A stretch of 64,000 nt of DNA from an uncultured Thermoprotei archaeon (GCA_965367815.1 CBDUKN010000010.1:1-64000), one strand, 5' to 3'; positions 972 through 28,957 are shown, counted from the stretch's first letter. Notes: a model not told the origin generated them from the letters alone. Made by a program: numbers and translations.

Positions 972-1691
972 GTGTACGCTTATTTTCCATATATGCCTTT
1001 AGTCTGTAAGATATTCGAGCTTATTGAGTCTCTTGAGCTAGAGTTTATTGCCATGAAGCTCAAGGACTTCAAGCAAGTTTATACCGAGGAAATAGAGGGC
1101 AGAGAAATAGAGCTAGGTTCTCTTGTAAAAGACTTATCTCTTCAAGAGAATATTTTGAGCGGCGTTTACGAGGACAGTTTTCTTGTAGAGCTTCCTTATA
1201 GAGGAGAGTATAGGAAAGTACCTGTCTCGAAAGAAACAAAATTCTTTTTTATGAGCCATGATGACAAAGTATTCCTGATTATAGGCGATAGAAAGCTTAG
1301 AGCTAATTTCCTGGCGAATAAGTTTTCTAAAATACTTTTTGCTAAGCGCGGAGGAATACTAGAGGCTACTATTAAGCCTCAAGTACTTAAAAGTCTCTAT
1401 GAGTCTAAGAAAAGCGCTGTTAAAGTAATGTTTTTCGACGACGTAAAAATACCTAATGTAAATAAGCTTTCTCTGTACGGCGACAATGTCGTAGACACGA
1501 GTCTTTACGCAGAGTATCTGAAGTACGGTAAGGTCTGGTACATTGTATTCGAGTACAGAGAAGGACTAGTACTGGGCTTAACTAGGAACTGTGTTGTTAC
1601 AGCTTTCTCTAAGATGAGTGAAGAAGAATTTTATCGCCTTGTCTTTGATGAAATAATTCCGTTAATTTCTACTACAGTAGAAGAAGAATAG
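972..1691 (+). CDS. Conserved archaeal hypothetical protein (likely start ATG ~993, MPLVCKIFEL)
   Basis: Long ORF with globular alpha/beta pattern and a conserved-looking FFDDVKIPNVNKLSLYG segment; no function recognised. Confidence 0.75.
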   Translation: MYAYFPYMPLVCKIFELIESLELEFIAMKLKDFKQVYTEEIEGREIELGSLVKDLSLQENILSGVYEDSFLVELPYRGEYRKVPVSKETKFFFMSHDDKVFLIIGDRKLRANFLANKFSKILFAKRGGILEATIKPQVLKSLYESKKSAVKVMFFDDVKIPNVNKLSLYGDNVVDTSLYAEYLKYGKVWYIVFEYREGLVLGLTRNCVVTAFSKMSEEEFYRLVFDEIIPLISTTVEEE

Positions 1692-7754: not shown

Positions 7755-9130
7755 ATGTTTATAAATTCTGTAAACCCCTGGTAGACTGGAAGTATAGAAG
7801 AAGACCCGGATTACTCTAAGTGGCTTAAGAGGAAAGTAAAGTGGGTGCCTTCGGAAGTAAATACTATAGTAAGCTCTATTAGAGATGAAGGGACTCATTT
7901 AAATTTCATAATAGGTCCACGGCAAGTAGGTAAAACTACTGGAATTAAAATAGCTGTAAGCAAATTATTGAATAAAATAGATGCTAGAAGAATATTCTAT
8001 TATAGATGTGATCTTATAAGTGACTACAAAGAATTACTTGAAGTTATTCAAAGCTACTTAAGGCTCGCTCAAGCCTGGGGTATTAAGGAATCAAAAGTAA
8101 TGTTTCTAGATGAAGTAAACATGGTTAAAGAATGGTGGAGAACAATAAAGTATCTAATTGACACAGGGGCTCTCAAAAATGTCAACATATTTTTAACAGG
8201 ATCATCTAGCATGAAGTTACTCAAAGAAACTGAAAGATTTCCTGGCAGAAGAAGATTAGGCAAGGACATATTCTTTCTTCCTCTATCTTTTAAAGAATAT
8301 CTACAGGTAGCTAATAGAAAGCTTTACAGCGAAATTAAGCATACTTTGATTAAAGTAAAGGCAAGAAATTTAAATGAAGTACTAGAAGCATGTTTATTCA
8401 TAGAGCCTTACTTACATGAACTAAACAGGGTTTTCTTAGAGTATATCGAGTGCGGAGGATATCCTCTCTCCATACTAGAGCGCTTTGGAGAAGAAAAAGG
8501 GGCTTCGGAAAGCTTACTTGCTTCAATTAGATACGATGTAGAGAGAGCGGGAAGAAATATGGGAGTATTTAAAGATATTTCAACATATCTTCTTCAAGCA
8601 GCACCGTCTCCTATTTCATTAGTAAAATTGCGAGAGAGGCGGGAGTAAGTAAAGCAACGTGCCAAGAATATATTCAGCTTGCAGTAGATCTATTTCTCTT
8701 AATCGCCTTAAGATACATAGACCCATACAGGCTACAGCCAGTTCCTAGGAAAGAGAGAAAATACTGTTTCATAGATCCGTTTATTTACACTGTTTTCTCG
8801 GAGTGGTGCGACGTCACTATTAAAAAGGAGCATGTAGTTGAGGCAGCGGCCATAGCCCACATACTGAGGCTAATTGACTGGAGGAAAGTATACGAGAATA
8901 CAGTCTACTACTGGAGAAATAGAGCTGAAGTAGACTTAATGGTGAAGGTCGATGGAAAGCCGCTGGGATTCGAAATAACATGGAGTCCTTTCAAAGAAAC
9001 AGTATCAGCTGTAGGCAAGATAAAGGAAATAGTCCTCTTGGATAGAGAAGAACTAGACTTAAATAAGAGAAGAATTCCTCTTGTGCTTTTTCTTCTAGTA
9101 GCAGAGCTAAAGAACATTAAGTTCAAATAG
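7755..9130 (+). pseudogene. AAA+ ATPase with DUF4143 C-terminus, disrupted
   Basis: NPW-TAG at 7782 in place of NPWW; GPRQVGKTT, FLDEV, LTGSS; frameshift ~8618 then SKIAREAGVSKAT...YYWRNRAEVDL...GFEITW. Confidence 0.85.
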
Positions 9131-13143: not shown

Positions 13144-13638
13144 TTAAAACATTCTAATTACAGTATTCCATGATATTATTTTCTTAGGTCTAGGTAAATC
13201 TTTATGATTTATTTCCAAGAGTTCTTTATCTTCAGTTAACAGTATAGCGTGATAGTAGGTTGCTGTAGCGTAAATTACTCTATCAAAGTAGTCTTTAATC
13301 TCCGCTTTCAGTAAGAGATCGTCAGCTATTTTCTCTATAGTAGAGTTAGTTAAAATTGTTTGATTTATATTACTATTTAGGAGAGCCTTAAGACCTTCTC
13401 TAAATGCTTCTAAAAGTATTATTTTCTTTGAAGGATTTTTCTTGCATAATTTAAGTATAATCCACTTAGCTTCAATTACCGATACAGGGTTATATAAAAC
13501 TGTATAGTTTTTGAGTAGTAATGGAAATAGTTTATCGTAGTCTTTAAGCTTTATTTTTATTCCGAAGAGTGGAAGAAGATACATAGTGTCTAGAACCAGC
13601 TTATCCATAAATTTCTTCCTCTTTCTGAATTTCTTCAC
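13144..13638 (-). CDS. vapC: PIN-domain toxin VapC
   Basis: LVLDTMYL...IEA...DYFDRVIYATA...LLTEDKEL. Confidence 0.85.
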   Translation of the reverse strand: MKKFRKRKKFMDKLVLDTMYLLPLFGIKIKLKDYDKLFPLLLKNYTVLYNPVSVIEAKWIILKLCKKNPSKKIILLEAFREGLKALLNSNINQTILTNSTIEKIADDLLLKAEIKDYFDRVIYATATYYHAILLTEDKELLEINHKDLPRPKKIISWNTVIRMF

Positions 13639-13864
13639 TTAATTTTTCTGCTTCTTCGGGACTTAGTTCAATAACATGTTTTTTAATAACTTCTTCTATT
13701 GTTGGAATAGGCTCTATTATGAGTCTTCCTTTCTCAACTATTGCTTTGACTTTGCCGCCTTCTTTAATACCTACCTTTCTTCTAACTTCTTTGCTCGTAT
13801 AAATTTCCCCCTTCTTTCCGACTTTCAATATTACTTCGGACTGCAAAGTATTCACCGAGAGCAC
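13601..13864 (-). CDS. vapB: AbrB/MazE-type antitoxin
   Basis: KVGKKGEIYTSKEVRRKVGIKEG...LIIEP; directly upstream of vapC. Confidence 0.85.
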   Translation of the reverse strand: MLSVNTLQSEVILKVGKKGEIYTSKEVRRKVGIKEGGKVKAIVEKGRLIIEPIPTIEEVIKKHVIELSPEEAEKLSEEIQKEEEIYG

Positions 13865-14022: not shown

Positions 14023-15207
14023 TTACTTATTATTTTTGATAATAGAGTATTTTAATGTTTTGTTTCGAGCATAATAGCTTACCCAAGTTTTTCTGCAGAA
14101 ACATGTCCACGTATCATAGGGCTCTGTGTCTGCTTTAATGCCTTGGCCTAGTACGTAGAAGGATGTAGAAGACTCTATTTTTGTTTCATCTATAGCTAAG
14201 TATTCTTCTTTGCCTGGAGTACACATAAGTATAATGTTTATGGGTTTTCCCTCAAGTTTTTCTACTATTCGTATTGGAACTAGTGTTTTTTCTTTAAAGG
14301 GCTTTACTTTATCTACTTTAATAGTGTACTCTTTATCAGTTTTCTTTACTATACTTACTTCGCCTACTGCTACGGAAGAACATGTGCCGTCTTTGTAGCA
14401 TAGAGTTAGGCTAGCGTAAGGTTCTTTAGAGTCGGGGCCTGCTGAACCGTTTATTAAGACATCTATGTTTTGTAGATTATTGTAGAGAACTTTATGCGTG
14501 TGTCCTGTAAGTGTACAGACTATATTAGTGTTTTTAAACACCATTACCGCGTGAGGATACCACTGGTCGAGTGGGTGGTGAGCCACAATTATTTTTGCTG
14601 AAGGATCTTCAGTTAGTCTTCTTTTAAGCCACAGTAAGTCGTTTAGTGATAGAAAATAGTGGCTTGTACCTGGTATTACTTCTTCTTCGCTGAAAGTATC
14701 GAAGGCTATTATCTTGAAGGCTCCTGCCTTAAAGCACCATAGTCTTTCGCACCACTCGTAATAGTACTGGCAGCCCGGGTCCACATCGTGGTTTCCTTTA
14801 ACCCAGAGCATATTAGGGAGCTTATCTTTCATATAGTTCCAGGCACAGCTAAACCAGTTTTCCTGGACTGAAGGTGATCTATATTCGCCAGAGCCGTTTA
14901 CGATATCTCCTATAAGTATTGAGAGAGAAGGATTACATTTAGACAAGATATCTACTATTTTAGCTGGATTAGGTGGAACAGAGTCTGTGAAATGAGGATC
15001 TGCAAACCATCCTAACATTATTGGGTGTAATTGAACGAAAGATGCTGTTAGCTTTGATAAAGAGTCGATAAACATTTTTCCTTTGCTGTAGTCTCCGTGA
15101 ATACACCAAAGCGATGAATCTACATATACTCTAGCTTTTTCTTCAACTGCAATAAGGTCTTCTATTATTCTATATTCGCCTGTAGGTACCTTAAATAATC
15201 CTCTCAC
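14023..15207 (-). CDS. Calcineurin-like metallophosphoesterase (CpdA/Icc-like motifs)
   Basis: FADPH, IGDIVN, KGNHD, AHHP, TGHTH. Confidence 0.85.
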   Translation of the reverse strand: MRGLFKVPTGEYRIIEDLIAVEEKARVYVDSSLWCIHGDYSKGKMFIDSLSKLTASFVQLHPIMLGWFADPHFTDSVPPNPAKIVDILSKCNPSLSILIGDIVNGSGEYRSPSVQENWFSCAWNYMKDKLPNMLWVKGNHDVDPGCQYYYEWCERLWCFKAGAFKIIAFDTFSEEEVIPGTSHYFLSLNDLLWLKRRLTEDPSAKIIVAHHPLDQWYPHAVMVFKNTNIVCTLTGHTHKVLYNNLQNIDVLINGSAGPDSKEPYASLTLCYKDGTCSSVAVGEVSIVKKTDKEYTIKVDKVKPFKEKTLVPIRIVEKLEGKPINIILMCTPGKEEYLAIDETKIESSTSFYVLGQGIKADTEPYDTWTCFCRKTWVSYYARNKTLKYSIIKNNK

Positions 15208-15394
15208 AGAGTGCTTAGCTAGCTATTATTTATATAACTTCGGATAGAGCACGTTATACATCTTTGTGTAAACTGAACTAGATAGTGTTCGAAGAAGAGC
15301 ATACTATTTTCTGCTTTCAGAACTTTGCGAGAAGCGGCGTAGATATCTCTTAAAGCATATGGTGTCTTTAGTAGAGCTAGTTTCGTGGAAGAAA

Positions 15395-16225
15395 CTAGAT
15401 CCGTGGAGAATATTTTCTGACAAGAGGTATAGGCTTAATTTGTTTTGCTTTCTGCGAAATCTTATATAGTGCCTTGGCGTATATTCTGCCGAACTCTGTT
15501 AAACATACTTGTTTTTCTCTGCCTGCGTGAAGCTTGTATACTAGTCCTTTTCTAACTAAGTCGTCTATCATGCGGCTGTATCTATTTTTCACGACATTGT
15601 CTCGCGGATTTTCTCCACACCACTCTATAAGGTCTTTGATGGCGTTCGCTTTTCCTCCTTTCTCGTAGAGAGTAATTAGTATTTTCTCGGCGAGCCACTT
15701 CTCGTTTTCGTCGAGAAGCTCTAATCTTTCTTCAGGAAGCATTAGCTGCAGTGGCTCTAAGCCGCGTTTATTGTCTTTTTCCTCAACCCATTCTTCGAAC
15801 TTAGGTGTACCGGGCTCAGGTATGAATTCTCCTCGCTCTATTGTAGGCACTACGTATAGGTATACTTTAGGGTGCATGAGCGCGATAGTAGTGACGCAGG
15901 CAACCATTTCTGGAGGCATCGATGTTATATCTATATATACTTCTCTGCCTTCACTTACTTCGCTGTGTACTAGCGGATATAGCTTAGAGAAAACGTTTTC
16001 GAAGCTGACGGGATTTACTTTCACTGGCTGTGGTCTGAAAAACGAAAGTATTTTGTACAGTTTTTTAGCATTTCTGCGTGATACTGCGCCATATCTGTCT
16101 TTCTTCATGTCGTAAAGAATGTATACTTTCTCTATCGGTTTTAAGCGTCTCAAGTACTCAAAGCCATCTAAGGCCAGTGTGGGATTGAAACAGACGTATA
16201 GCACTACTACGACCATGGGGAGCAC
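15395..16225 (-). CDS. CARF-like (Csa3/DUF6293-type) Rossmann domain plus C-terminal wHTH regulator
   Basis: N-terminal beta-alpha unit, IEKVYIL, VYIDITSMP (cf. CARF xNxTGG loop), then wHTH ending DLVRKGLV...VCLTEFGRIY. Confidence 0.7.
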   Translation of the reverse strand: MLPMVVVVLYVCFNPTLALDGFEYLRRLKPIEKVYILYDMKKDRYGAVSRRNAKKLYKILSFFRPQPVKVNPVSFENVFSKLYPLVHSEVSEGREVYIDITSMPPEMVACVTTIALMHPKVYLYVVPTIERGEFIPEPGTPKFEEWVEEKDNKRGLEPLQLMLPEERLELLDENEKWLAEKILITLYEKGGKANAIKDLIEWCGENPRDNVVKNRYSRMIDDLVRKGLVYKLHAGREKQVCLTEFGRIYAKALYKISQKAKQIKPIPLVRKYSPRI

Positions 16226-16285
16226 TCAGTTAAAGATATATTCTTACGGTAACATTCTCGCATTATACTAATATATATTTTTCTG

Positions 16286-16376
16286 ACAGTAACTAAAGTC
16301 TCCATAACAGTAACTATTTTGTGTGACTATCACCTTGGGTTCCTACATGGGATAGTATCAGAAAAATGTGACTATC
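16286..16376. promoter_or_regulatory. Four GT(A/G)ACTA-core repeats in the divergent promoter region
   Basis: ACAGTAACTA at 16286 and 16307; TGTGACTATC at 16322 and 16367. Confidence 0.5.
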
Positions 16377-16470
16377 TATGGTGGAGCTGTTTCTATCACA
16401 GGTATGCGACGGCATCACTTTTTTATGATTTTCATTAGAATTATATTATACTTTCAGTATACTCTCTCTC

Positions 16471-17487
16471 GTGAGGCTTCAAGGGGCTTTCAGAGAAGAT
16501 GTAGTGAAAACTGATATCAACATGGTTTTAGATAAACTCAGGCTAGTTTACTTGAGGCGTAAAGCTAAAGCCTTAATCAATGAAGAGGAAGTATACCCTG
16601 TCCTTAAAGTTAAAAACAGGAGGATTACTGGTCTTCCTATTAGGCCTAGCAGGCTTAAAGTACTTGAAGTTATTCCTCACTCGAAGAGAGTTCTTTCAGT
16701 TGATGCTGGACTGAAAATTCTCTTTGACTGCGGTACTTTCAAAATTATTTTAGCTAAAGTAGCCGCCGGAATGTGGGTTGGTAGAGAAAAAGTGCTGGAG
16801 CCAGAGCCTATTAAGAGAATAACTCTTGTATGGGATAAGTTTGAGGCAGCTGAGTGGCTTCTCCGCGTAGAAATAGAGGCTTTGCTGAGCATAGTTCACT
16901 TGCTTAAAGCGGGAGACTACTGTATACTCGATAGATGCTTAATGGCTGTACCTGCGTTCCGTAAAAGCACTAAAGAGTTTTTCGAAAAACTAGACGACAC
17001 TCTGAGCAGTAGAGGAGCTATACTCGTAGGAGTATCTAAAGCCAGCCAGCTGAAGCTAAATACTGGAGAAAGCCTCATAGGGTATCTTCTACACCTCGCC
17101 GACAGGAGGCTTAGAGGAGTACCTTGGTACTACTACCCTATTTTCAGGGAGTCAGAGCTCCCTCCATGGTACTTAGGTAGCATATGTGTAGCTAAGCTTG
17201 ATCCAGACGTAGAGCATGCTTTCAGAATAGATATTTCTAGAAAAGCTCTAGCTTCAAGAGACATAGGAGATATTCTCGGCGAACTAGCGTATCTGCAGGA
17301 TCCTGCTACACCCGGCTATCCTTACCCAGCTAAAGGAGTGCACGATATGACGAAAATCGGTGAAGAAGAGCTAGAAATGGAGAGAATGCGTTTTCTCGAG
17401 CTCCTCGACGAGGAAGGTTTACTGAAGAACTTTATTGCCGATGTCCGTAGCGTGACTTTCAAGGAGCGCTACTTGTGGAGGAGGTAG
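16471..17487 (+). CDS. nurA: NurA-family 5'-3' nuclease
   Basis: LSVDAG, ILDRCL, VGVSKAS, GYPYPAKGVHDMTKI; upstream of herA. Confidence 0.85.
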   Translation: MRLQGAFREDVVKTDINMVLDKLRLVYLRRKAKALINEEEVYPVLKVKNRRITGLPIRPSRLKVLEVIPHSKRVLSVDAGLKILFDCGTFKIILAKVAAGMWVGREKVLEPEPIKRITLVWDKFEAAEWLLRVEIEALLSIVHLLKAGDYCILDRCLMAVPAFRKSTKEFFEKLDDTLSSRGAILVGVSKASQLKLNTGESLIGYLLHLADRRLRGVPWYYYPIFRESELPPWYLGSICVAKLDPDVEHAFRIDISRKALASRDIGDILGELAYLQDPATPGYPYPAKGVHDMTKIGEEELEMERMRFLELLDEEGLLKNFIADVRSVTFKERYLWRR

Positions 17488-17489
17488 CT

Positions 17490-19148
17490 ATGAAAGTAGG
17501 TGTTGTAGTCTGGGCTGAAGGCACTACAGTAAAGTTCAGGATAAAAGAAAAGGCTCTAGTAGAGAGAGGACAGTTGCTAAAAGTAGACACTAAGTACGCT
17601 AAATTCATTTTAAGAGTCTACGACTTTAAGCCCGAGAGCCTGCTTACTCAAGCCGAAATAGCTAGGCTCAGCAAGAAGAAAGAGGATGGCGAAAACATCG
17701 AGATATACGACAAGGGCTTAAGGCTCTATGATACAGCGCTAGCAACTATTATTTGCCAAATAGACTCTGAGGGACACGTCCACGGACCCACGACAGTTCC
17801 CCCTCTTTTTAGTGAAGTAGAAACTCTTAATAAACACGACTTAGAGCAGCTCCGCTTAGATACAGGAGACCTTCCGATAGGGTACATTAGAGTAGGCCAT
17901 AAGACGTCAGAAGCTATCGTCGCGTTAGACGGAGCGAAAACTATACCTCACCATATACTAGTCTGCGGAGTCACTGGCGCAGGTAAAAGCAATCTAGGTA
18001 AAGTTCTAGCTTACTCAATTATGAGAACTAAAGGAAAATATAGCCTCGTGCTCTTCGACTGTGAAAGCGAGTACTTTCAGGGTGCTAGTCCAGCTCAGCT
18101 AGGACTTGTCCACGCGCCTGAAGCAGAAGACTACTTGCTCTACGTAACTCCCCGCGTACAGGAGCCGTGTAAACTGAAAGTAACCATAATGTATAAGGGA
18201 GCTGAAATTGAGCGCAGAGTAGAAGCTTATCCCCTAGCAATAGGCTATGATCAGCTTAAGCCAGATGACTTTACTCTAACAGGAGAGTTTACTCACCCAC
18301 AGGAAGAACTGCTCTGGCTAATATACAGGCTCAGGAAAAGAGACTGGCTTAGCTTCCTCCTAGAAGCGCCTCCAGACATGATTTACCGCTTTGTAAAGAA
18401 GCTTGCCGCTAAAAACACTATAAATACTCTTAAAAGAAAGCTAAAACACTTGCTAGGCTCGGGAGATATATTTGTAGAAGATGCTCCGCCATTCAATACT
18501 CTTGACGCCATAATAGGGGCTGCTATGAGAGGCTGCGTTGTGCTAATCGATATACCTTATGCTACTGAAGGCGAAGAAAAGCTTTTGGCGACAGCAACAG
18601 CTAGAAGAATATTCGATACATATGAGAAGCTGAGAAAACATGCTCCCGAAGACTGGGAGAAACTCCCCTACGTACTTATAGCAGTAGAGGAAGCTCACAG
18701 ATACTTGTCTAAAACAAGTCTTACTTCAACAGGCGAGCTTAGAGAAAACATTTTCTCAATAATAAGTAAGAGAGGAAGAAAATACAAAGTAGGCGCGCTC
18801 TACATAACGCAGATGCCCGGAGAACTCATAGAGCCCGTGATAAGACAGAGCCTCACTAAAATAATACTCCCGCTGCCCACTAAGCCAGACTACACACGCA
18901 TAATAGAGTATTCGCCTTATTTAGATGAGGCTTCACAGGAAATAAAAACGCTGGATAAAGGAGAAGCACTACTAGTATCGCCTCCCTCTGGTATAAGGTT
19001 CGCTGTACCGATTAAGGTGTTCTCGTATGAGGAGCTAGTAGGAAAGAGGTTAAGTGAAGAAATAGCATCTAGGTATACTCCTGCGCGGAAAATAAGGCGA
19101 TTTAAACCTCTCAAGAAAATAAACGAGGAGGCAGTAGTCTTAAGCTAA
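17490..19148 (+). CDS. herA: HerA-family ATPase/helicase
   Basis: N-terminal HAS barrel, HILVCGVTGAGKSN, AVEEAHRY, KRGRKY, ITQMP; ATG 17490 follows GGAGG. Confidence 0.92.
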   Translation: MKVGVVVWAEGTTVKFRIKEKALVERGQLLKVDTKYAKFILRVYDFKPESLLTQAEIARLSKKKEDGENIEIYDKGLRLYDTALATIICQIDSEGHVHGPTTVPPLFSEVETLNKHDLEQLRLDTGDLPIGYIRVGHKTSEAIVALDGAKTIPHHILVCGVTGAGKSNLGKVLAYSIMRTKGKYSLVLFDCESEYFQGASPAQLGLVHAPEAEDYLLYVTPRVQEPCKLKVTIMYKGAEIERRVEAYPLAIGYDQLKPDDFTLTGEFTHPQEELLWLIYRLRKRDWLSFLLEAPPDMIYRFVKKLAAKNTINTLKRKLKHLLGSGDIFVEDAPPFNTLDAIIGAAMRGCVVLIDIPYATEGEEKLLATATARRIFDTYEKLRKHAPEDWEKLPYVLIAVEEAHRYLSKTSLTSTGELRENIFSIISKRGRKYKVGALYITQMPGELIEPVIRQSLTKIILPLPTKPDYTRIIEYSPYLDEASQEIKTLDKGEALLVSPPSGIRFAVPIKVFSYEELVGKRLSEEIASRYTPARKIRRFKPLKKINEEAVVLS

Positions 19149-19247
19149 TACCTCAAACTTCTTGAGAACTACAAACCCGGCTTTTGGAAATAGGCTGTAG
19201 AACATTTCGTAAGCCTCATTAATGTCTATTTGTAGTTACTAATAGGT

Positions 19248-20060
19248 TTGAGTATTAAGAGGGAACTTAAGTTAAAGGAGTGGAAGGAGGCTATAAAAGA
19301 ATTTGACAGAATAGTTAGCTTAATTGAAGATATATTAAGAAAGCGTGTAGACCCCTTTACGGTCGATATCTCTGAGCTTTTAGAGAAAATGCGTTTGCTT
19401 TTAGAAAAGTACGGCGATGAAGTTCTCCTAGTGGATATTGAGGCTTTATGCAAAATAGTTGACTTGATTAAGGAGCAGGAAGAATGGCTTCAAAATGAGT
19501 CTCTTGTTTTAAGTCTCGGTCCATTCTTTGCTTTAGCGAGAATAAAGCAGATGAGTGTTGAGGAAATAGCAGAGAAATTCTGCGCGTCCTGGACTCCTAT
19601 TGCTTATAGAGACCAAGCATCTATTTCTACCTTAATGAAGGCTTTAAATTACTTAGATGCACTCAAGAAATTTCCTAAAACAGTAGATTTCTCGCTTAGC
19701 AGTGAATACGAGCTCGATAGAAGTTCCTTGAATTTAGAGTTTTTAAGCGACGAAGACTTTAGAGAGAAGCTTGAGACTTTAGAGAAAAAGATTAAAGAAG
19801 TTCTTGAAGAGAAAGAAGAAGTTGACTACTGGGATTTAGTTATCGACAGGAGTTTTGAGCGGTCTTTAGAGAACATGATTATTTTATCTCATTTATGTAG
19901 CAGAGGAGTTGTTTCAATTAAAATAAATCCTCTTTCAGGAGAAATAAAAATAATGAAGCCTCGCAGAAAAAGTGAAAATTATTCTGTGGCACTTGTATTT
20001 AATTACGAGACGTGGGTGAAGAAAATTGCCGAGAAAAAGAAAACTAGAGAAAAAAGTTAA
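19248..20060 (+). CDS. Kleisin (ScpA-like) SMC partner
   Basis: N-terminal RVDPFTVDISELL (cf. ScpA IDPWDIDI); C-terminal wHD DYWDLV...ILSHLCSRGVVSI...PLSGEIKI (cf. LLFL...G.I...PFGEIYI). Confidence 0.7.
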   Translation: MSIKRELKLKEWKEAIKEFDRIVSLIEDILRKRVDPFTVDISELLEKMRLLLEKYGDEVLLVDIEALCKIVDLIKEQEEWLQNESLVLSLGPFFALARIKQMSVEEIAEKFCASWTPIAYRDQASISTLMKALNYLDALKKFPKTVDFSLSSEYELDRSSLNLEFLSDEDFREKLETLEKKIKEVLEEKEEVDYWDLVIDRSFERSLENMIILSHLCSRGVVSIKINPLSGEIKIMKPRRKSENYSVALVFNYETWVKKIAEKKKTREKS

Positions 20061-20580
20061 GCGCTTAATAGCGGTTCTCTTCTTGAGAAGCAGAAGCAGA
20101 CCAGGCGTCAGAGGATACGAGTTAAGGAAGCTTCTAGGAGAAAACTACATGGAAGTAGTGAGAGCAGCTCAAAGAAAGCTAGAAGACTTAGGACTCGAGA
20201 TAAAAGCAGTTACCGACGACGGGAAAATACTAGATATAAGTAGCGAGGAAGATTTTAGTGAAGCTCGCTTCGTGTTAGTTGTTAGAGAAGAGCTTAAGCC
20301 CGAGGAACTTAAGAGCTGTGGCTGGAGAATAGACGATATTGCTGTGCTAGCTACAGCCATAATCTATATTCTCTCGCTCAGAGGAAAAGCTCCTAGAGAA
20401 AATATAGTGAACTTGCTTAAAGATAAAATTCCTGAATGGAGAGTGAATACAGCGTTAGATAGGTTCATTAAGGCAGGCTATCTTGAAGAAGAAAATGATT
20501 TACTCAAGCTAGGGTGGAGAACTTACGCTGAAGTCAACTTAGAGAAATTGATGACGTTATTTCGAGCTCCGAGTGAGTAG
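20026..20580 (+). CDS. Kite-type tandem winged-helix protein (Nse1/Nse3-like)
   Basis: Two WH units; ends LDRFIKAGYL...LKLGWRTYAEV; overlaps the kleisin gene. Confidence 0.6.
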   Translation: MPRKRKLEKKVKRLIAVLFLRSRSRPGVRGYELRKLLGENYMEVVRAAQRKLEDLGLEIKAVTDDGKILDISSEEDFSEARFVLVVREELKPEELKSCGWRIDDIAVLATAIIYILSLRGKAPRENIVNLLKDKIPEWRVNTALDRFIKAGYLEEENDLLKLGWRTYAEVNLEKLMTLFRAPSE

Positions 20581-21873
20581 TTTGAGGTCTATTAGCCATC
20601 TCCAGAGAGGCTTAACTTCTATTTCTCTATTATCTTCTAGTATTTTGTCTTCTTGACTCCAAGTAACTATTACCAGTTTTTTGCATTTAAGTTCTTTTGA
20701 AGCTTTAACAAGGGTTTTTACTTCTCTTTTCCATTGTTCTCTATCATCGTATCTCAAGTAGTATGTAACTTGTATAAGTTGTTTAACTTCACCTTTATCT
20801 ACTATAATAAAGTCTACTTCATTATCGTTAATTTTATAATAAAATATGTTTTCGTTTTCAATAAATCCTCTTTTTCTAAGCTCCATGAAAACTAAGTTTT
20901 CTAATAATTGACCTTGCATTTCGGGAGTAATTACATTGTATACTCTAGCGAGGCCATTATCTACGACATAGATTTTTGGAATACTTTGCTCAACTATTCT
21001 TAGCGAGTAGGAGAAGCGTCTTAAAGGGAAGGCTATGTACGCGTCGTTCATATAGTCTAAGTAGCTATAGAGAGAGTTTTTGCTTATTCTAAGTCCTAGA
21101 GATTTCATGTAGTTAGCTACCTTATTAATTGAAAAGTATCGTGCAAAACTAGTGAAAACTATTTTGAAGAATAGTTTAACAGTATCTATTCTTCTGATCT
21201 TATATCTTTCTACAATATCTCTATAGAACATTACTTCCGCGTATTCTCTTAATATTTTTTCTTTTTCTTCTCTGAGAATTACTTCAGGAAATCCTCCATA
21301 TTCTAAGTATTTTTCTGCTTCTCTTTTTATAGCTGCTTCTTCTCTTGATGAAAAATACTTGCCTAAGGGCAAATTTCTCGCTTTAAGTACTTCAGTAAAA
21401 GTAAACGGGAAAATTTCATAAACTACTGTTCTCCCCCTTAAAAGAGACGCTATTTCTTTAGATAAAAGCCTTGAAGAAGATCCAGTTATGTAAACCAGTA
21501 TTCCTTCTCGTTCAACAGCTCTCTTGACAAAACGCTCCCATGAATCTACTTCTTGAATTTCATCTAGGAATAAGTATACTGGTTTTTTACCTAGAATTTC
21601 GCGAGAGACTTTAAGTAGGAGATCTAAGTCTTTTAGACTAGGAGGATATATTCTATCGTCGTCTAGAGGAAAGAAGATCGAGGGACTATCTTTCCTAATT
21701 TTTTGATATAGGTAAAGTAGGTAGAAAGTTTTGCCAGCTCTTCTAGGACCGACTATAGATATGGCTTTCCTAAAGGTGTAGTCTAGAGGCACTTTGAGTT
21801 CTCTTTCTATAATTTCTTCTTCTTTTTCCTGAAATTCCTTTATTATTTGACCTATAGCGTATTCTTTGCTCAT
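20557..21873 (-). CDS. AAA_14 ATPase with DUF4143 domain
   Basis: GPRRAGKT, FLDEIQ, ITGSSS, GGFPE, KIYVVDNGL, ENLV, EVDF, IQV. Confidence 0.92.
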   Translation of the reverse strand: MSKEYAIGQIIKEFQEKEEEIIERELKVPLDYTFRKAISIVGPRRAGKTFYLLYLYQKIRKDSPSIFFPLDDDRIYPPSLKDLDLLLKVSREILGKKPVYLFLDEIQEVDSWERFVKRAVEREGILVYITGSSSRLLSKEIASLLRGRTVVYEIFPFTFTEVLKARNLPLGKYFSSREEAAIKREAEKYLEYGGFPEVILREEKEKILREYAEVMFYRDIVERYKIRRIDTVKLFFKIVFTSFARYFSINKVANYMKSLGLRISKNSLYSYLDYMNDAYIAFPLRRFSYSLRIVEQSIPKIYVVDNGLARVYNVITPEMQGQLLENLVFMELRKRGFIENENIFYYKINDNEVDFIIVDKGEVKQLIQVTYYLRYDDREQWKREVKTLVKASKELKCKKLVIVTWSQEDKILEDNREIEVKPLWRWLIDLKLLTRSSK

Positions 21874-26128: not shown

Positions 26129-28957
26129 GTGTCTAGTGTTTTAGACATGTTTACTCCTCTCGTAAGAAAACTTATTGAGGAACGAGGGTTTAGTGAGCTT
26201 ACTCCTCCACAGAAAGCAGCTATACCGCTTATATTGAAAGGACATAATGTGCTTATAGTTGCTCCCACTGGAACAGGTAAAACAGAAGCAGCAGTAATTC
26301 CTGTAGCTGACTTAATGTTGCGTGAAGAGCGGAGGCCTGGAGTAAAGCTAATTTATATTACTCCGCTGAGAGCTCTCAACCGCGATATTCTTGAGCGTAT
26401 TGAGTGGTGGTTTAGAAAGCTAGATTTCCGCGTAGCTGTCCGCCACGGCGATACAAGTGCTTCTGAGAGACGTTTCCAGGCAATTCACCCGCCAGATGTG
26501 CTCGTAACGACTCCAGAGACTTTTCAGCTTCTTTTCCTCGGCAAGCTTCTCAAAAAGAGTCTTCTTTCGGTTAAATGGGTTATAGTAGACGAAGTACATG
26601 AAATTGCTTCGAGTAAAAGAGGAGTTCAGCTAGCTGTGCTCTTAAGGAGGCTGACTAGGCTAACGGGAAGCGAGCCTCAGATAATAGGGCTTTCAGCTAC
26701 TGTAGGCAATCCCAGCGAAGTAGCGGAGTTCTTAGTGGGCTGCGGCAAAGAATGTAAAGTAGTTTACGTACCGGTAGCTAAGCAGATAGAAGTAAGTGTC
26801 GAGTACCCTAAGCCTTCTCGAGGAGACGAAGAAGAAGCAAGTAAACTTTACTTGAGGCCGGATGCTTTCGCCAGACTAAAGTTCATTAAGAAACTAGTCT
26901 TAGAAAACAGAGCTGTTCTCATCTTCACTAACACTAGACCTATGGCAGAACTACTTTCCAGTAGATTTAAGCTATGGGACCCTAATCTACCTATACATAT
27001 TCACCATGGAAGCCTATCTGTTCTAAGTAGGACGAAAGCAGAGAGAATGCTGAAAACAGGCAAAGCTAAGGGAATTATATGTACTTCTTCGCTTGAACTT
27101 GGAATAGACGTAGGGCACATAGATCTTGTCGTGCAGTATAATTCGCCGCGCCAAGTATCGAAGCTAGTACAGAGAGTCGGTAGAAGCGGGCATAGAATAG
27201 GTGAAGTTAGTAGGGGAGTAGTTGTTGTACAGAATACTGATGATGCTTTAGAAGCACTAGTCTTGAAGTATTTTCTAAGTAAAGAGAAAATAGAGCCTAT
27301 TCAAATACCTGATAAGCCGTTAGATGTGCTTGCACATGAGTTACTAGGCTTGATTATAGCTGAAAAGAAAGTAGATTTAGCTAAAGCTTACCAGTTGTTC
27401 AAGGAATCTTATCCCTACAGGAATTTAGAGCTGCCTGAGTTTATGGACCTAGTATCTTTTCTCGAAGAAATTAGGCTAATTAGAAACATTGGAGGAGTAC
27501 TCGTGCTAGGCGACAGAAAGTACGCATACAAGTATTTCTACTCGAATTTATCGATGATACCTGAAGTAAAGCAGTATATTGTAGTAGACGAAAAAGAAAA
27601 ACTACCTGTAGGAGTACTAGACGACTTCTTTGTAGCACACTACTGTGAACCTGGAGTAAAATTCATTATGGCAGGTGCTCCCTGGAAAGTAAAGCAAGTA
27701 TTCGAAGACACAGTGTACGTTGAGCCTGAAGAAGACTACACTGGAGCAATACCCAGCTGGATAGGAGAAGAAATTCCTGTTCCATTTGAAGTGGCACAGG
27801 AAGTAGGTAAAGTAAGGAAGCTTACGGAAACTCTTGCTCAAAAAGGATTGAGCTTAAGTGAAGTCGCCGAAGAAATCGCGAAGAAGTATGGGTGGTGTAG
27901 AGAAATCGTCCGTGAAGCTATTCGAGATGTCTACGAGATAGCTGCAAGGAAAATACCTGTACCTTCTCACGACACCATAGTAGTAGAGAAGTTCAAGGAC
28001 ATAATAGCAGTACACATGCACTTCGGAAATAGAGTAAACAGAACTATTGGACGCTACCTGGCCTATAAAATATCAGAGCTCTACGGAGTAAGCGTACATA
28101 TAGCAGAAAAACCCTACGCAGTCTACATTAGGTCTAAGTGGATTACAGCCGAAGACATAGCAGAAATATTCTCAAAAATAAGCAGAGAAGACTTCATTAA
28201 AACCCTTGAGAAAGGTCTGCCTGAAAGCAGGTTCTTTAAGTGGAGACTGACCCAAGTAGCCAGAAGAATAGGTGTCGTAGACCCCGAAGTTAGACTTACC
28301 CAAAGCATAATAGATAAACTAGCTTCAGCACTCAAAAATACTCCAGCTTACCGAGAAGCCCTCAAAGAAACTCTTCACAGAGACCTCGACTTAAATACAG
28401 CACTTAAAGTAGTAAACAAAATAGCTCGCAAAGAAATAACAATACACATTGTAAGCGGACCTACTCCGCTTGCTCAGCAATCGCTGCTCTACGCAATTGA
28501 GTCAATGGAGCCAACAGGACTAAAAGACAGAAGAATGCTAGGCTTCCTCATATTCAAAGCAAAAATACTCTCAGCTACGGTAACAGTAGCCTGTCTATCC
28601 TGCGAAGAATACATAGAGGAGAAAAAGGCGCTCGAAGCAGAATACAAGCCATGTCCAATATGCGGATCAGAAGACATAGTTTTTAGCCTCAAGTCTCCCG
28701 AAGAGCTTTCCAGAGACATAGAGTACTATCGAGAAAAACCAAAAGCAAAGAAAAGCAAAAAACTAAAAAAGATAGCTCAACTCTACAAAAAATACGGAAT
28801 AAAAGCAGTATATGGGATAGCAGCAGGCTTCACATTAAAAGAACTATCACAAATACTCAAACAACAATACACGAACACAGACGAATACCTAAAAACACTA
28901 TACATAAACCATAAAAGAAAACAACTAAAACAAGCTAATCTTTCACATAAGCTATGA
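26129..28957 (+). CDS. lhr: Lhr-family SF2 helicase with C-terminal Zn finger
   Basis: APTGTGKTEAA, PLRALNRD, RHGDT, DEVHE, GLSAT, HHGSLS, QRVGRSGH, IPSWIGE, CLSC/CPICG. Confidence 0.95.
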   Translation: MSSVLDMFTPLVRKLIEERGFSELTPPQKAAIPLILKGHNVLIVAPTGTGKTEAAVIPVADLMLREERRPGVKLIYITPLRALNRDILERIEWWFRKLDFRVAVRHGDTSASERRFQAIHPPDVLVTTPETFQLLFLGKLLKKSLLSVKWVIVDEVHEIASSKRGVQLAVLLRRLTRLTGSEPQIIGLSATVGNPSEVAEFLVGCGKECKVVYVPVAKQIEVSVEYPKPSRGDEEEASKLYLRPDAFARLKFIKKLVLENRAVLIFTNTRPMAELLSSRFKLWDPNLPIHIHHGSLSVLSRTKAERMLKTGKAKGIICTSSLELGIDVGHIDLVVQYNSPRQVSKLVQRVGRSGHRIGEVSRGVVVVQNTDDALEALVLKYFLSKEKIEPIQIPDKPLDVLAHELLGLIIAEKKVDLAKAYQLFKESYPYRNLELPEFMDLVSFLEEIRLIRNIGGVLVLGDRKYAYKYFYSNLSMIPEVKQYIVVDEKEKLPVGVLDDFFVAHYCEPGVKFIMAGAPWKVKQVFEDTVYVEPEEDYTGAIPSWIGEEIPVPFEVAQEVGKVRKLTETLAQKGLSLSEVAEEIAKKYGWCREIVREAIRDVYEIAARKIPVPSHDTIVVEKFKDIIAVHMHFGNRVNRTIGRYLAYKISELYGVSVHIAEKPYAVYIRSKWITAEDIAEIFSKISREDFIKTLEKGLPESRFFKWRLTQVARRIGVVDPEVRLTQSIIDKLASALKNTPAYREALKETLHRDLDLNTALKVVNKIARKEITIHIVSGPTPLAQQSLLYAIESMEPTGLKDRRMLGFLIFKAKILSATVTVACLSCEEYIEEKKALEAEYKPCPICGSEDIVFSLKSPEELSRDIEYYREKPKAKKSKKLKKIAQLYKKYGIKAVYGIAAGFTLKELSQILKQQYTNTDEYLKTLYINHKRKQLKQANLSHKL

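Follow-up and report, generated by a model that had tools for sequence, protein, structure and literature searches.

The CARF and winged-helix factor Csa3a of Sulfolobus islandicus binds imperfect palindromes, often two per promoter, in front of nurA-herA, dpo2 and two SMC-like genes (Liu et al., 2017; PMC5587795), and clusters of the form nurA-CARF(csm6)-herA are listed among the type III-associated loci of the Thermoproteales (Shah et al., 2018; PMC6546367). Operons for SMC5/6-related complexes have likewise been reported from archaea (Yoshinaga and Inagaki, 2021; PMC8665677), some of which, in TACK and Asgard lineages, contain the genes of all three subunits (van Hooff et al., bioRxiv 10.1101/2024.01.07.573240). 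Here we describe a locus in which genes of both kinds lie side by side, at positions 14,023 to 20,580 of a 64,000-nucleotide stretch of DNA (the window; GCA_965367815.1, CBDUKN010000010.1:1-64000) from an uncultured Thermoprotei archaeon whose genome (G000; 2.45 Mb, 99.4% complete) we call the source genome. Genes for a metallophosphoesterase and a CARF and winged-helix regulator are followed there, across a divergent control region, by genes for a NurA-like nuclease, a HerA-like translocase, a kleisin and a kite.

A preliminary description of the window had read these six genes as one second-messenger-controlled module for defence or repair. All six open reading frames lie where it had placed them, and the CARF and winged-helix, HerA, kleisin and kite folds that it named were confirmed by Pfam, PADLOC, Foldseek and profile searches. 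What we find are two modules of known kinds, placed side by side in this genus alone, plus a stray phosphoesterase. We regard it as distinctly probable that three independent units, namely the regulator with the NurA-like/HerA-like pair (A), the kleisin with the kite (B), and the phosphoesterase (C), were brought next to one another by local rearrangement in one genus of Thermofilales-type archaea.

The regulator, NurA-like and HerA-like cassette

Of 401 genomes sampled from the phylum, 95 were matched in a search with the NurA-like protein alone; in 29 of these (the source genome included) the match was at E < 1e-20, and the weaker matches cover the C-terminal half only. Twenty of the 28 strong loci outside the source genome were fetched, with 4–19 kb per locus, and in all 20, which span several families and classes, the regulator gene is divergent from the NurA-like and HerA-like genes. 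The other neighbours of the trio show no conservation, and phosphoesterase, kleisin and kite are found in none of these loci. In the order to which the source genome belongs (41 genomes, the basis of all counts for 'the order' below), a NurA-like profile finds a single copy in 34 genomes, and in 23 of the 27 of high quality; thus the gene looks like a core gene, not like part of a patchy defence island. Within the same class, 35 genomes sampled from two families (f9 and f10) gave no match to the protein. The three genes form a conserved cassette with a shared divergent control region, as the preliminary description had supposed for this part of the locus. Among the papers listed by a limited literature search, which is no proof that the arrangement is unpublished, none describes such a head-to-head cassette in its title or the opening of its abstract.

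The regulator has an N-terminal CARF fold and a C-terminal winged-helix DNA-binding domain. PADLOC CARF3 models (E 2.2e-10) and the Pfam DUF6293_C winged helix (E 5.4e-5; 24 bits, slightly below the cut-off of 27) both match it, and its profile reaches MarR-type chains (E 5.7e-4). An AlphaFold model based on 22 orthologues (predicted local distance difference test score, pLDDT, 90.0; predicted template modelling score, pTM, 0.84) returned a Foldseek listing filled by CARF proteins, with Csa3 at the top (2wte_A, E 9.2e-8) and Csm6, Csx1, ring nucleases and Can/Card proteins after it. Global template modelling (TM) scores of these matches are low (0.31–0.50), as is expected where two domains differ in mutual orientation. 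CARF domains carry a signature motif, [DN]x[ST]xxx[RK], after strand 4. Two of its positions, D99 and T101, are invariant among the 22 sequences, and the last, basic position is a lysine in 11 of the 22 and a proline in the regulator of the window (DITSMPP). Control by a ligand bound to the CARF domain would be in keeping with this fold.

Repeats had been noted in the promoter region between the regulator and the NurA-like gene, and they are indeed present in this 245-nt divergent intergenic region (16226–16470), which contains two operator-like palindromes that follow the pattern GTAWC-N8-GWKAC (Table 1). Across the 22 orthologous intergenic regions the pattern occurs 18 times, in 11 of them; 0.11 occurrences would be expected, and none of 500 shuffles gave more than 2. 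This enrichment is somewhat flattered because the pattern was read by eye from the same sequences that were scored. Two sites are present in seven of the 22 regions, mostly at a spacing of 45–46 nt. A loose form of the pattern occurs at 61 positions of the source genome, and the pair in the window is the only one in 2.45 Mb with its members 20–70 nt apart; the regulator thus looks dedicated to this promoter pair. The genome-wide pattern search placed no operator-like site before the kleisin, the phosphoesterase or the SMC gene described below. We suggest that the regulator, presumably as a dimer, would bind the two predicted operators between the divergent promoters and so control both its own gene and the translationally coupled nuclease and translocase genes.

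The NurA-like protein alone gives no Pfam match, Pfam NurA included, and single-sequence searches of the PDB with it, the kleisin and the kite returned nothing usable, so that profiles were required. A 22-sequence profile reaches the NurA of S. solfataricus (2ygk) at E 3.8e-5, in which D58, E116, D133, K202 and Y298 are catalytic or conserved (PMC3326311). D78, E134, D154, K190 and H291 do not vary among the 22 sequences, and Y283 hardly does; the profile alignment sets E134, D154 and Y283 on E116, D133 and Y298 of NurA, while D78 and K190 are assigned to D58 and K202 by position only. Judged from these alignments, the D-E-D site and the conserved lysine and tyrosine appear intact. The HerA-like gene overlaps the NurA-like gene by 13 nt. 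Its product matches DUF87/HerA (E 6e-17), has a Walker A motif (GVTGAGKS) at residue 165 and a Walker B-like motif (IAVEEAH) at residue 404, and is 51–66% identical to its orthologues in other cassettes. With 67.5 bits on HerA_Thermprot (cut-off 800) and 60.5 bits on helicase_HerA (cut-off 970), it would not count as an orthologue of the canonical repair HerA by the NCBIfam equivalog cut-offs. The pair most likely acts in the NurA-HerA manner, in which a hexamer powered by ATP drives the ends of DNA into a nuclease dimer.

These genes are not the sole herA and nurA of the source genome, in agreement with what the preliminary reading required. Contig C2 carries herA-mre11-rad50, with rad50 cut by the contig end (an Mre11 query matched this contig only); C5 has a third NurA-HerA-type locus, where a nurA of 423 aa is paired with a herA of 564 aa and neither mre11 nor rad50 is present (C5:122301-125271); C31 has a lone nurA; and on C17 a HerA-like gene (540 aa) is divergent from a 343-aa gene with no Pfam match, followed by CARF7/Cas_APE2256 (L065:6371-9887). 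The pair in the window is therefore one of several paralogues. Contig C17 also bears CRISPR arrays and genes for Csx1 (531 aa), Cas6, Cas4 and a 298-aa PIWI-only piece of Argonaute. An 873-aa open reading frame on it was considered as a divergent Cas10 and dropped, as it matched nothing in Pfam or PADLOC.

One could also see the cassette as an ancillary effector of type III CRISPR systems, in which cyclic oligoadenylate made by Cas10 switches on NurA-HerA for the degradation of invader DNA or the supply of spacer precursors. The best structural matches of the regulator are Csa3, which binds cyclic tetra-adenylate (cA4), and other cyclic oligoadenylate sensors; a catalogue of accessory genes has HerA/NurA pairs under 'type III co-evolved' (PMC6546367), and the PADLOC model 'HerA, type III coevolved' is matched at E 1.3e-17. 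Across the order, 17 of the 41 genomes match either of two Cas10 models (TIGR02577 and TIGR02578) at E up to 1e-3, two of these matches being short and weak. A Cas10-like match is present in 16 of the 34 genomes that carry the cassette and missing from 18, of which 11 are at least 90% complete, although counts resting on two models may miss a divergent Cas10. The source genome, in which neither model finds a match anywhere, is among the 18. This distribution suggests that a type III cyclic-oligoadenylate signal is not required for the family. Furthermore, no cas genes stand beside the cassette in the 20 loci, and a separate, true Csa3 (PADLOC Csa3, E 2.4e-30) lies beside cas1 in the type I cas locus of the source genome (C8). 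We therefore consider a role as a type III ancillary effector unlikely. Near-universal in the order, with a clear operator and often with no detectable Cas10, the cassette offers a tractable case for CARF sensing outside CRISPR.

Kleisin and kite of an SMC5/6-related operon

The kleisin and the kite are subunits of the published archaeal SMC5/6-related complex. The kleisin matches Nse4_C at E 1e-6 (29.3 bits, cut-off 26; 36.5 bits for the kleisin of a relative, L025), and its profile reaches Nse4 chains at E 1.1e-3. The kite has no Pfam match. Its model (pLDDT 87.3) finds Nse1/Nse3 first in Foldseek (7dg2, E 1.1e-6 to 7.3e-6, TMq 0.63–0.72), followed by JetB (E 2.3e-4), ScpB and MukE. Kleisin genes are present in 21 of the 41 genomes of the order, and up to 18.5 kb was fetched around the 20 loci outside the source genome. 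The kite adjoins the kleisin in 18 of the 20, the exceptions being one contig end and one locus in which no kite was detected. A gene of about 575–640 codons, which we call c5, stands immediately before the kleisin in 18 of the 19 loci from outside the genus; the nineteenth locus ends inside the kleisin. The c5 product matches SMC_N (E 1.3e-32), and a profile of 18 relatives matches eukaryotic Smc6 (7e-56) and Smc5 (1.6e-53) better than prokaryotic Smc (8e-43) and the SMCs of cohesin and condensin.

The same association extends to other classes. A search with the c5 alignment yielded at least nine true SMC5/6-like loci, one of which duplicates locus L040, leaving eight that, among the matches listed, come from Bathyarchaeia, Methanomethylicia and one unclassified archaeon. 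Among these matches the c5-kleisin-kite operon is intact in all six Bathyarchaeia and Methanomethylicia loci of sufficient length, and none of the eight has a NurA-like, HerA-like, CARF or phosphoesterase gene within 10 kb. A protein of about 225 residues, c7, is encoded beside c5 in 11 of the 20 loci of the order and, among the matches listed, in six of the eight from other classes; it may be a fourth partner of the complex. An Lhr helicase gene lies beside the operon in 13 of the 20 loci of the order. Pfam searches for SMC_N, ScpA and ScpB detected no canonical SMC, ScpA or ScpB in the source genome; as nothing significant was found for ScpA or ScpB, the kleisin and kite are not of the ScpAB type, and this organism may have no SMC-kleisin-kite complex other than the SMC5/6-related one.

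In the source genome the operon is split. A tblastn search with c5 sequences of relatives placed residues 4–37 at positions 3–104 of the window on the minus strand (79–91% identity) and residues 13–578 at the end of contig C16, also on the minus strand, where the remainder of c5 occupies C16:64634-66322. The last 77 nt of C16 are exactly the first 77 nt of the contig of the window (C10), and this overlap, together with the split match, indicates that one intact c5 spans the join of the two contigs. It thus lies about 19 kb from the kleisin and on the opposite strand, outside the operon of the kleisin. The preliminary description had reported no mre11, rad50 or cas gene in the window; no match to Rad50-like proteins, Cas1 or Cas10 was found inside it, nor any CRISPR array or Rfam match, but the SMC N-terminus at its very edge had gone unseen.

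The usual order of these genes is c7(-) c5(+) kleisin(+) kite(+) Lhr(-), whereas the window reads c5(-) c7(+), then, after 17 kb, HerA-like(+) kleisin(+) kite(+), and beyond these Lhr(+). In a second genome of the same genus (G001) c5(-) and c7(+) are on a different contig from the kleisin. These arrangements are consistent with a rearrangement resembling an inversion, one breakpoint of which would lie precisely between c5 and the kleisin; its steps could not be reconstructed, as wider synteny is too scrambled between families. We suggest that the kleisin and kite would still serve their distant SMC5/6-like ATPase, displaced by 19 kb to the other strand, and not NurA-HerA, as had been proposed earlier.

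The junction itself is real. Contigs from four public sequencing runs of four studies, one run possibly being the source sample, bridge the HerA-like and kleisin genes without insertions or deletions, which argues that their adjacency is not an assembly artefact. It is confined to one genus: a single kleisin locus of the 20 in the order has phosphoesterase, regulator, NurA-like and HerA-like genes with it, and that locus (L023) is from G001, where a 288-aa coiled-coil gene intervenes between the HerA-like gene and the kleisin (L023 5611-6477, on contig C69). With none of the 20 NurA-like loci showing the adjacency, nor any of the eight loci from other classes among the matches listed, the proposed coupling of NurA-HerA to kleisin and kite is not supported, judged by the refuting criterion that the preliminary description had itself set.

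Several observations nonetheless weigh against this reading of the locus. The adjacency has been kept in two genomes whose kleisins are just 65% identical; the relatives are mostly draft genomes on short contigs; and the operator pattern, chosen post hoc, is limited to half of the intergenic regions. In one other genome (G004; L027 6993-17484, on its contig C2) a canonical nurA-herA-mre11-rad50 operon is convergent to c5-kleisin-kite, 0.85 kb behind it with one NTP-transferase gene between, which together with the recurrent Lhr helicase hints at a loose tie between the SMC complex and repair genes. The promoters bound by Csa3a in S. islandicus include those of nurA-herA and of two SMC-like genes alike (PMC5587795). 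Finally, the HerA-like and kleisin genes share a strand, and their 99-nt gap contains no terminator-like hairpin (by a sigma-70 and terminator scan, which has little weight for an archaeon), so that read-through and co-regulation are possible in this genus.

These observations raise the question of whether kleisin and kite have come under the control of the cassette by read-through from the NurA-like and HerA-like genes, such that the CARF regulator would set their level and physical coupling would be unneeded. The kleisin has, after all, been parted from the SMC gene that shows translational coupling with it elsewhere. The two genomes of the genus share a conserved stretch of about 45 nt just upstream of the kleisin start, the AT-rich CATTAAT included, despite the gene inserted in G001, and this stretch would fit a promoter of the kleisin's own; nor does any operator-like site lie near the kleisin or c5. 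We thus hold such a capture to be rather unlikely. Quite improbable, in turn, is its fuller form, in which a single signal would co-induce a DNA-end resection motor and SMC5/6-type subunits now placed behind a CARF-regulated NurA-HerA operon. If true, it would be an example from nature of archaeal SMC5/6-type complexes tied to recombinational repair, and would foreshadow the role of SMC5/6 in eukaryotes.

Behind the kite, an ATPase gene of AAA_14 and DUF4143 type (window 20557-21873, minus strand) is convergent with the kite gene and overlaps its 3' end by 24 nt. Its product has a weak Mrr_cat match and belongs by PADLOC to the candidate family PDC-S01 (E 4.5e-97); a shorter AAA_14 paralogue lies at window 7845-8648.

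The phosphoesterase and the question of a single system

The metallophosphoesterase belongs to neither conserved module. All of its motifs are present (DPH70, GD100, GNHD138, HH210 and GHTH235); the label 'CpdA-like' of the preliminary description is not supported, the protein scoring 15.5 bits against the NCBIfam CpdA cut-off of 225 and having general Metallophos motifs only. Full-length relatives occur in eight of the 41 genomes of the order, with two weak matches in addition, and none of six other phosphoesterase loci (four of them on contigs of 5–10.5 kb) has regulator, NurA-like, HerA, kleisin or kite genes nearby, which speaks against its proposed role as eraser of a signal. It would be a stand-alone enzyme that elsewhere is unlinked to either of the other units. 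Directly downstream of it is a VapBC-like pair (window 13144-13864, minus strand), in which the gene for an 87-aa AbrB/MazE-type protein overlaps that for a 164-aa PIN protein; an AbrB/MazE-like gene also follows the phosphoesterase in one relative (G011, L084).

Could the six genes nevertheless act together, with an SMC5/6-like sensor passing the DNA of plasmids or viruses on to NurA-HerA while the phosphoesterase erases a second messenger? In favour of this, two genomes of the genus have the genes in a cluster, the fold of the regulator is that of a CARF protein, the active site of the phosphoesterase is intact, and the kite resembles JetB of Wadjet. The combination is, however, absent from all 20 NurA-like loci, from the 19 kleisin loci outside the genus, from the six phosphoesterase loci and from the eight further SMC5/6-like loci among the matches listed. 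The SMC partner lies elsewhere, the CpdA score is far below its cut-off, no Cas10 was found in the genome with the two models, and the order has the NurA-like gene almost throughout and in a single copy, unlike the content of a patchy defence island. As to the analogy with Wadjet that had been drawn, a scan of seven proteins gave no match to the Wadjet models of PADLOC. A single six-gene system is thus very improbable; the proposal dissolves into known kinds of module and is not worth pursuing as one system.

Table 1. Positions in the window of the features discussed in the text.
Feature	Position	Strand	Basis or remark
N-terminus of c5, about 37 codons	3..113	-	tblastn with c5 of relatives
c7, protein of about 225 aa without Pfam family	999..1667	+	recurrent neighbour of c5
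Metallophosphoesterase	14023..15207	-	Pfam Metallophos, E 7.6e-13
CARF and winged-helix regulator (Csa3-like, DUF6293 type)	15395..16225	-	PADLOC, Pfam, AlphaFold/Foldseek
Two palindromic operator-like sites, GTAWC-N8-GWKAC	16310-16327, 16355-16372	.	45 nt apart
NurA-like nuclease (putative), divergent paralogue	16471..17487	+	22-sequence profile against 2ygk
HerA-like hexameric ATPase/translocase (putative), paralogue	17475..19148	+	DUF87
Gap between HerA-like and kleisin genes, 99 nt	19149..19247	+	CATTAAT about 29 nt before kleisin start
Nse4-type kleisin	19248..20060	+	Pfam Nse4_C
Nse1/Nse3-type kite (tandem winged helix)	20026..20580	+	AlphaFold/Foldseek
Lhr-type helicase	26129..28957	+	Pfam DEAD, DEAD_assoc, WH_Lhr

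Comparison with known systems

Among described systems, Wadjet (JetABCD) is the one to which the kite bears a likeness in fold, through JetB. The likeness goes no further: JetA, JetB, JetC and JetD models of PADLOC give no match, the SMC profile is best on Smc5/6, and no JetD-like gene is present among the neighbours scanned.

The cassette has closer counterparts. With the canonical herA-mre11-rad50-nurA operon, the pair in the window would share the catalytic residues of NurA, the Walker motifs of HerA and translational coupling; it differs from that operon in having no adjoining mre11 or rad50, no match to Pfam NurA, and a HerA_Thermprot score far below the cut-off. In the type III-associated clusters of the Thermoproteales, as listed by Shah et al. 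(2018), a divergent NurA-like/HerA-like pair likewise stands next to a CARF protein, although the CARF protein listed there has no DNA-binding domain and the genes lie amid type III cas genes. The C17 locus of the source genome is of that kind and is separate from the cassette in the window. The nearest parallel studied by experiment is Csa3a on nurA-herA in S. islandicus: by analogy, both would be CARF and winged-helix factors acting on NurA-HerA genes through palindromes, the binding being predicted in our case. The regulator described here is of the DUF6293 type with no PADLOC Csa3 match, in a genome whose true Csa3 is found elsewhere beside cas1; it is head-to-head with its target, with no cas genes nearby; and its operator pair, unique in the genome, suggests a regulator dedicated to this target and not a global one.

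Kleisin, kite and c5, for their part, correspond to the SMC5/6-related operons of other archaea, with the same Nse4-type kleisin, the same Nse1/Nse3-type kite and an SMC profile that is best on Smc6 and Smc5. They differ in that the operon is split in this genus, with an SMC of about 580 residues encoded apart from its kleisin and kite; the genus thus provides a natural experiment in which an SMC5/6-type operon has been separated from its SMC gene.

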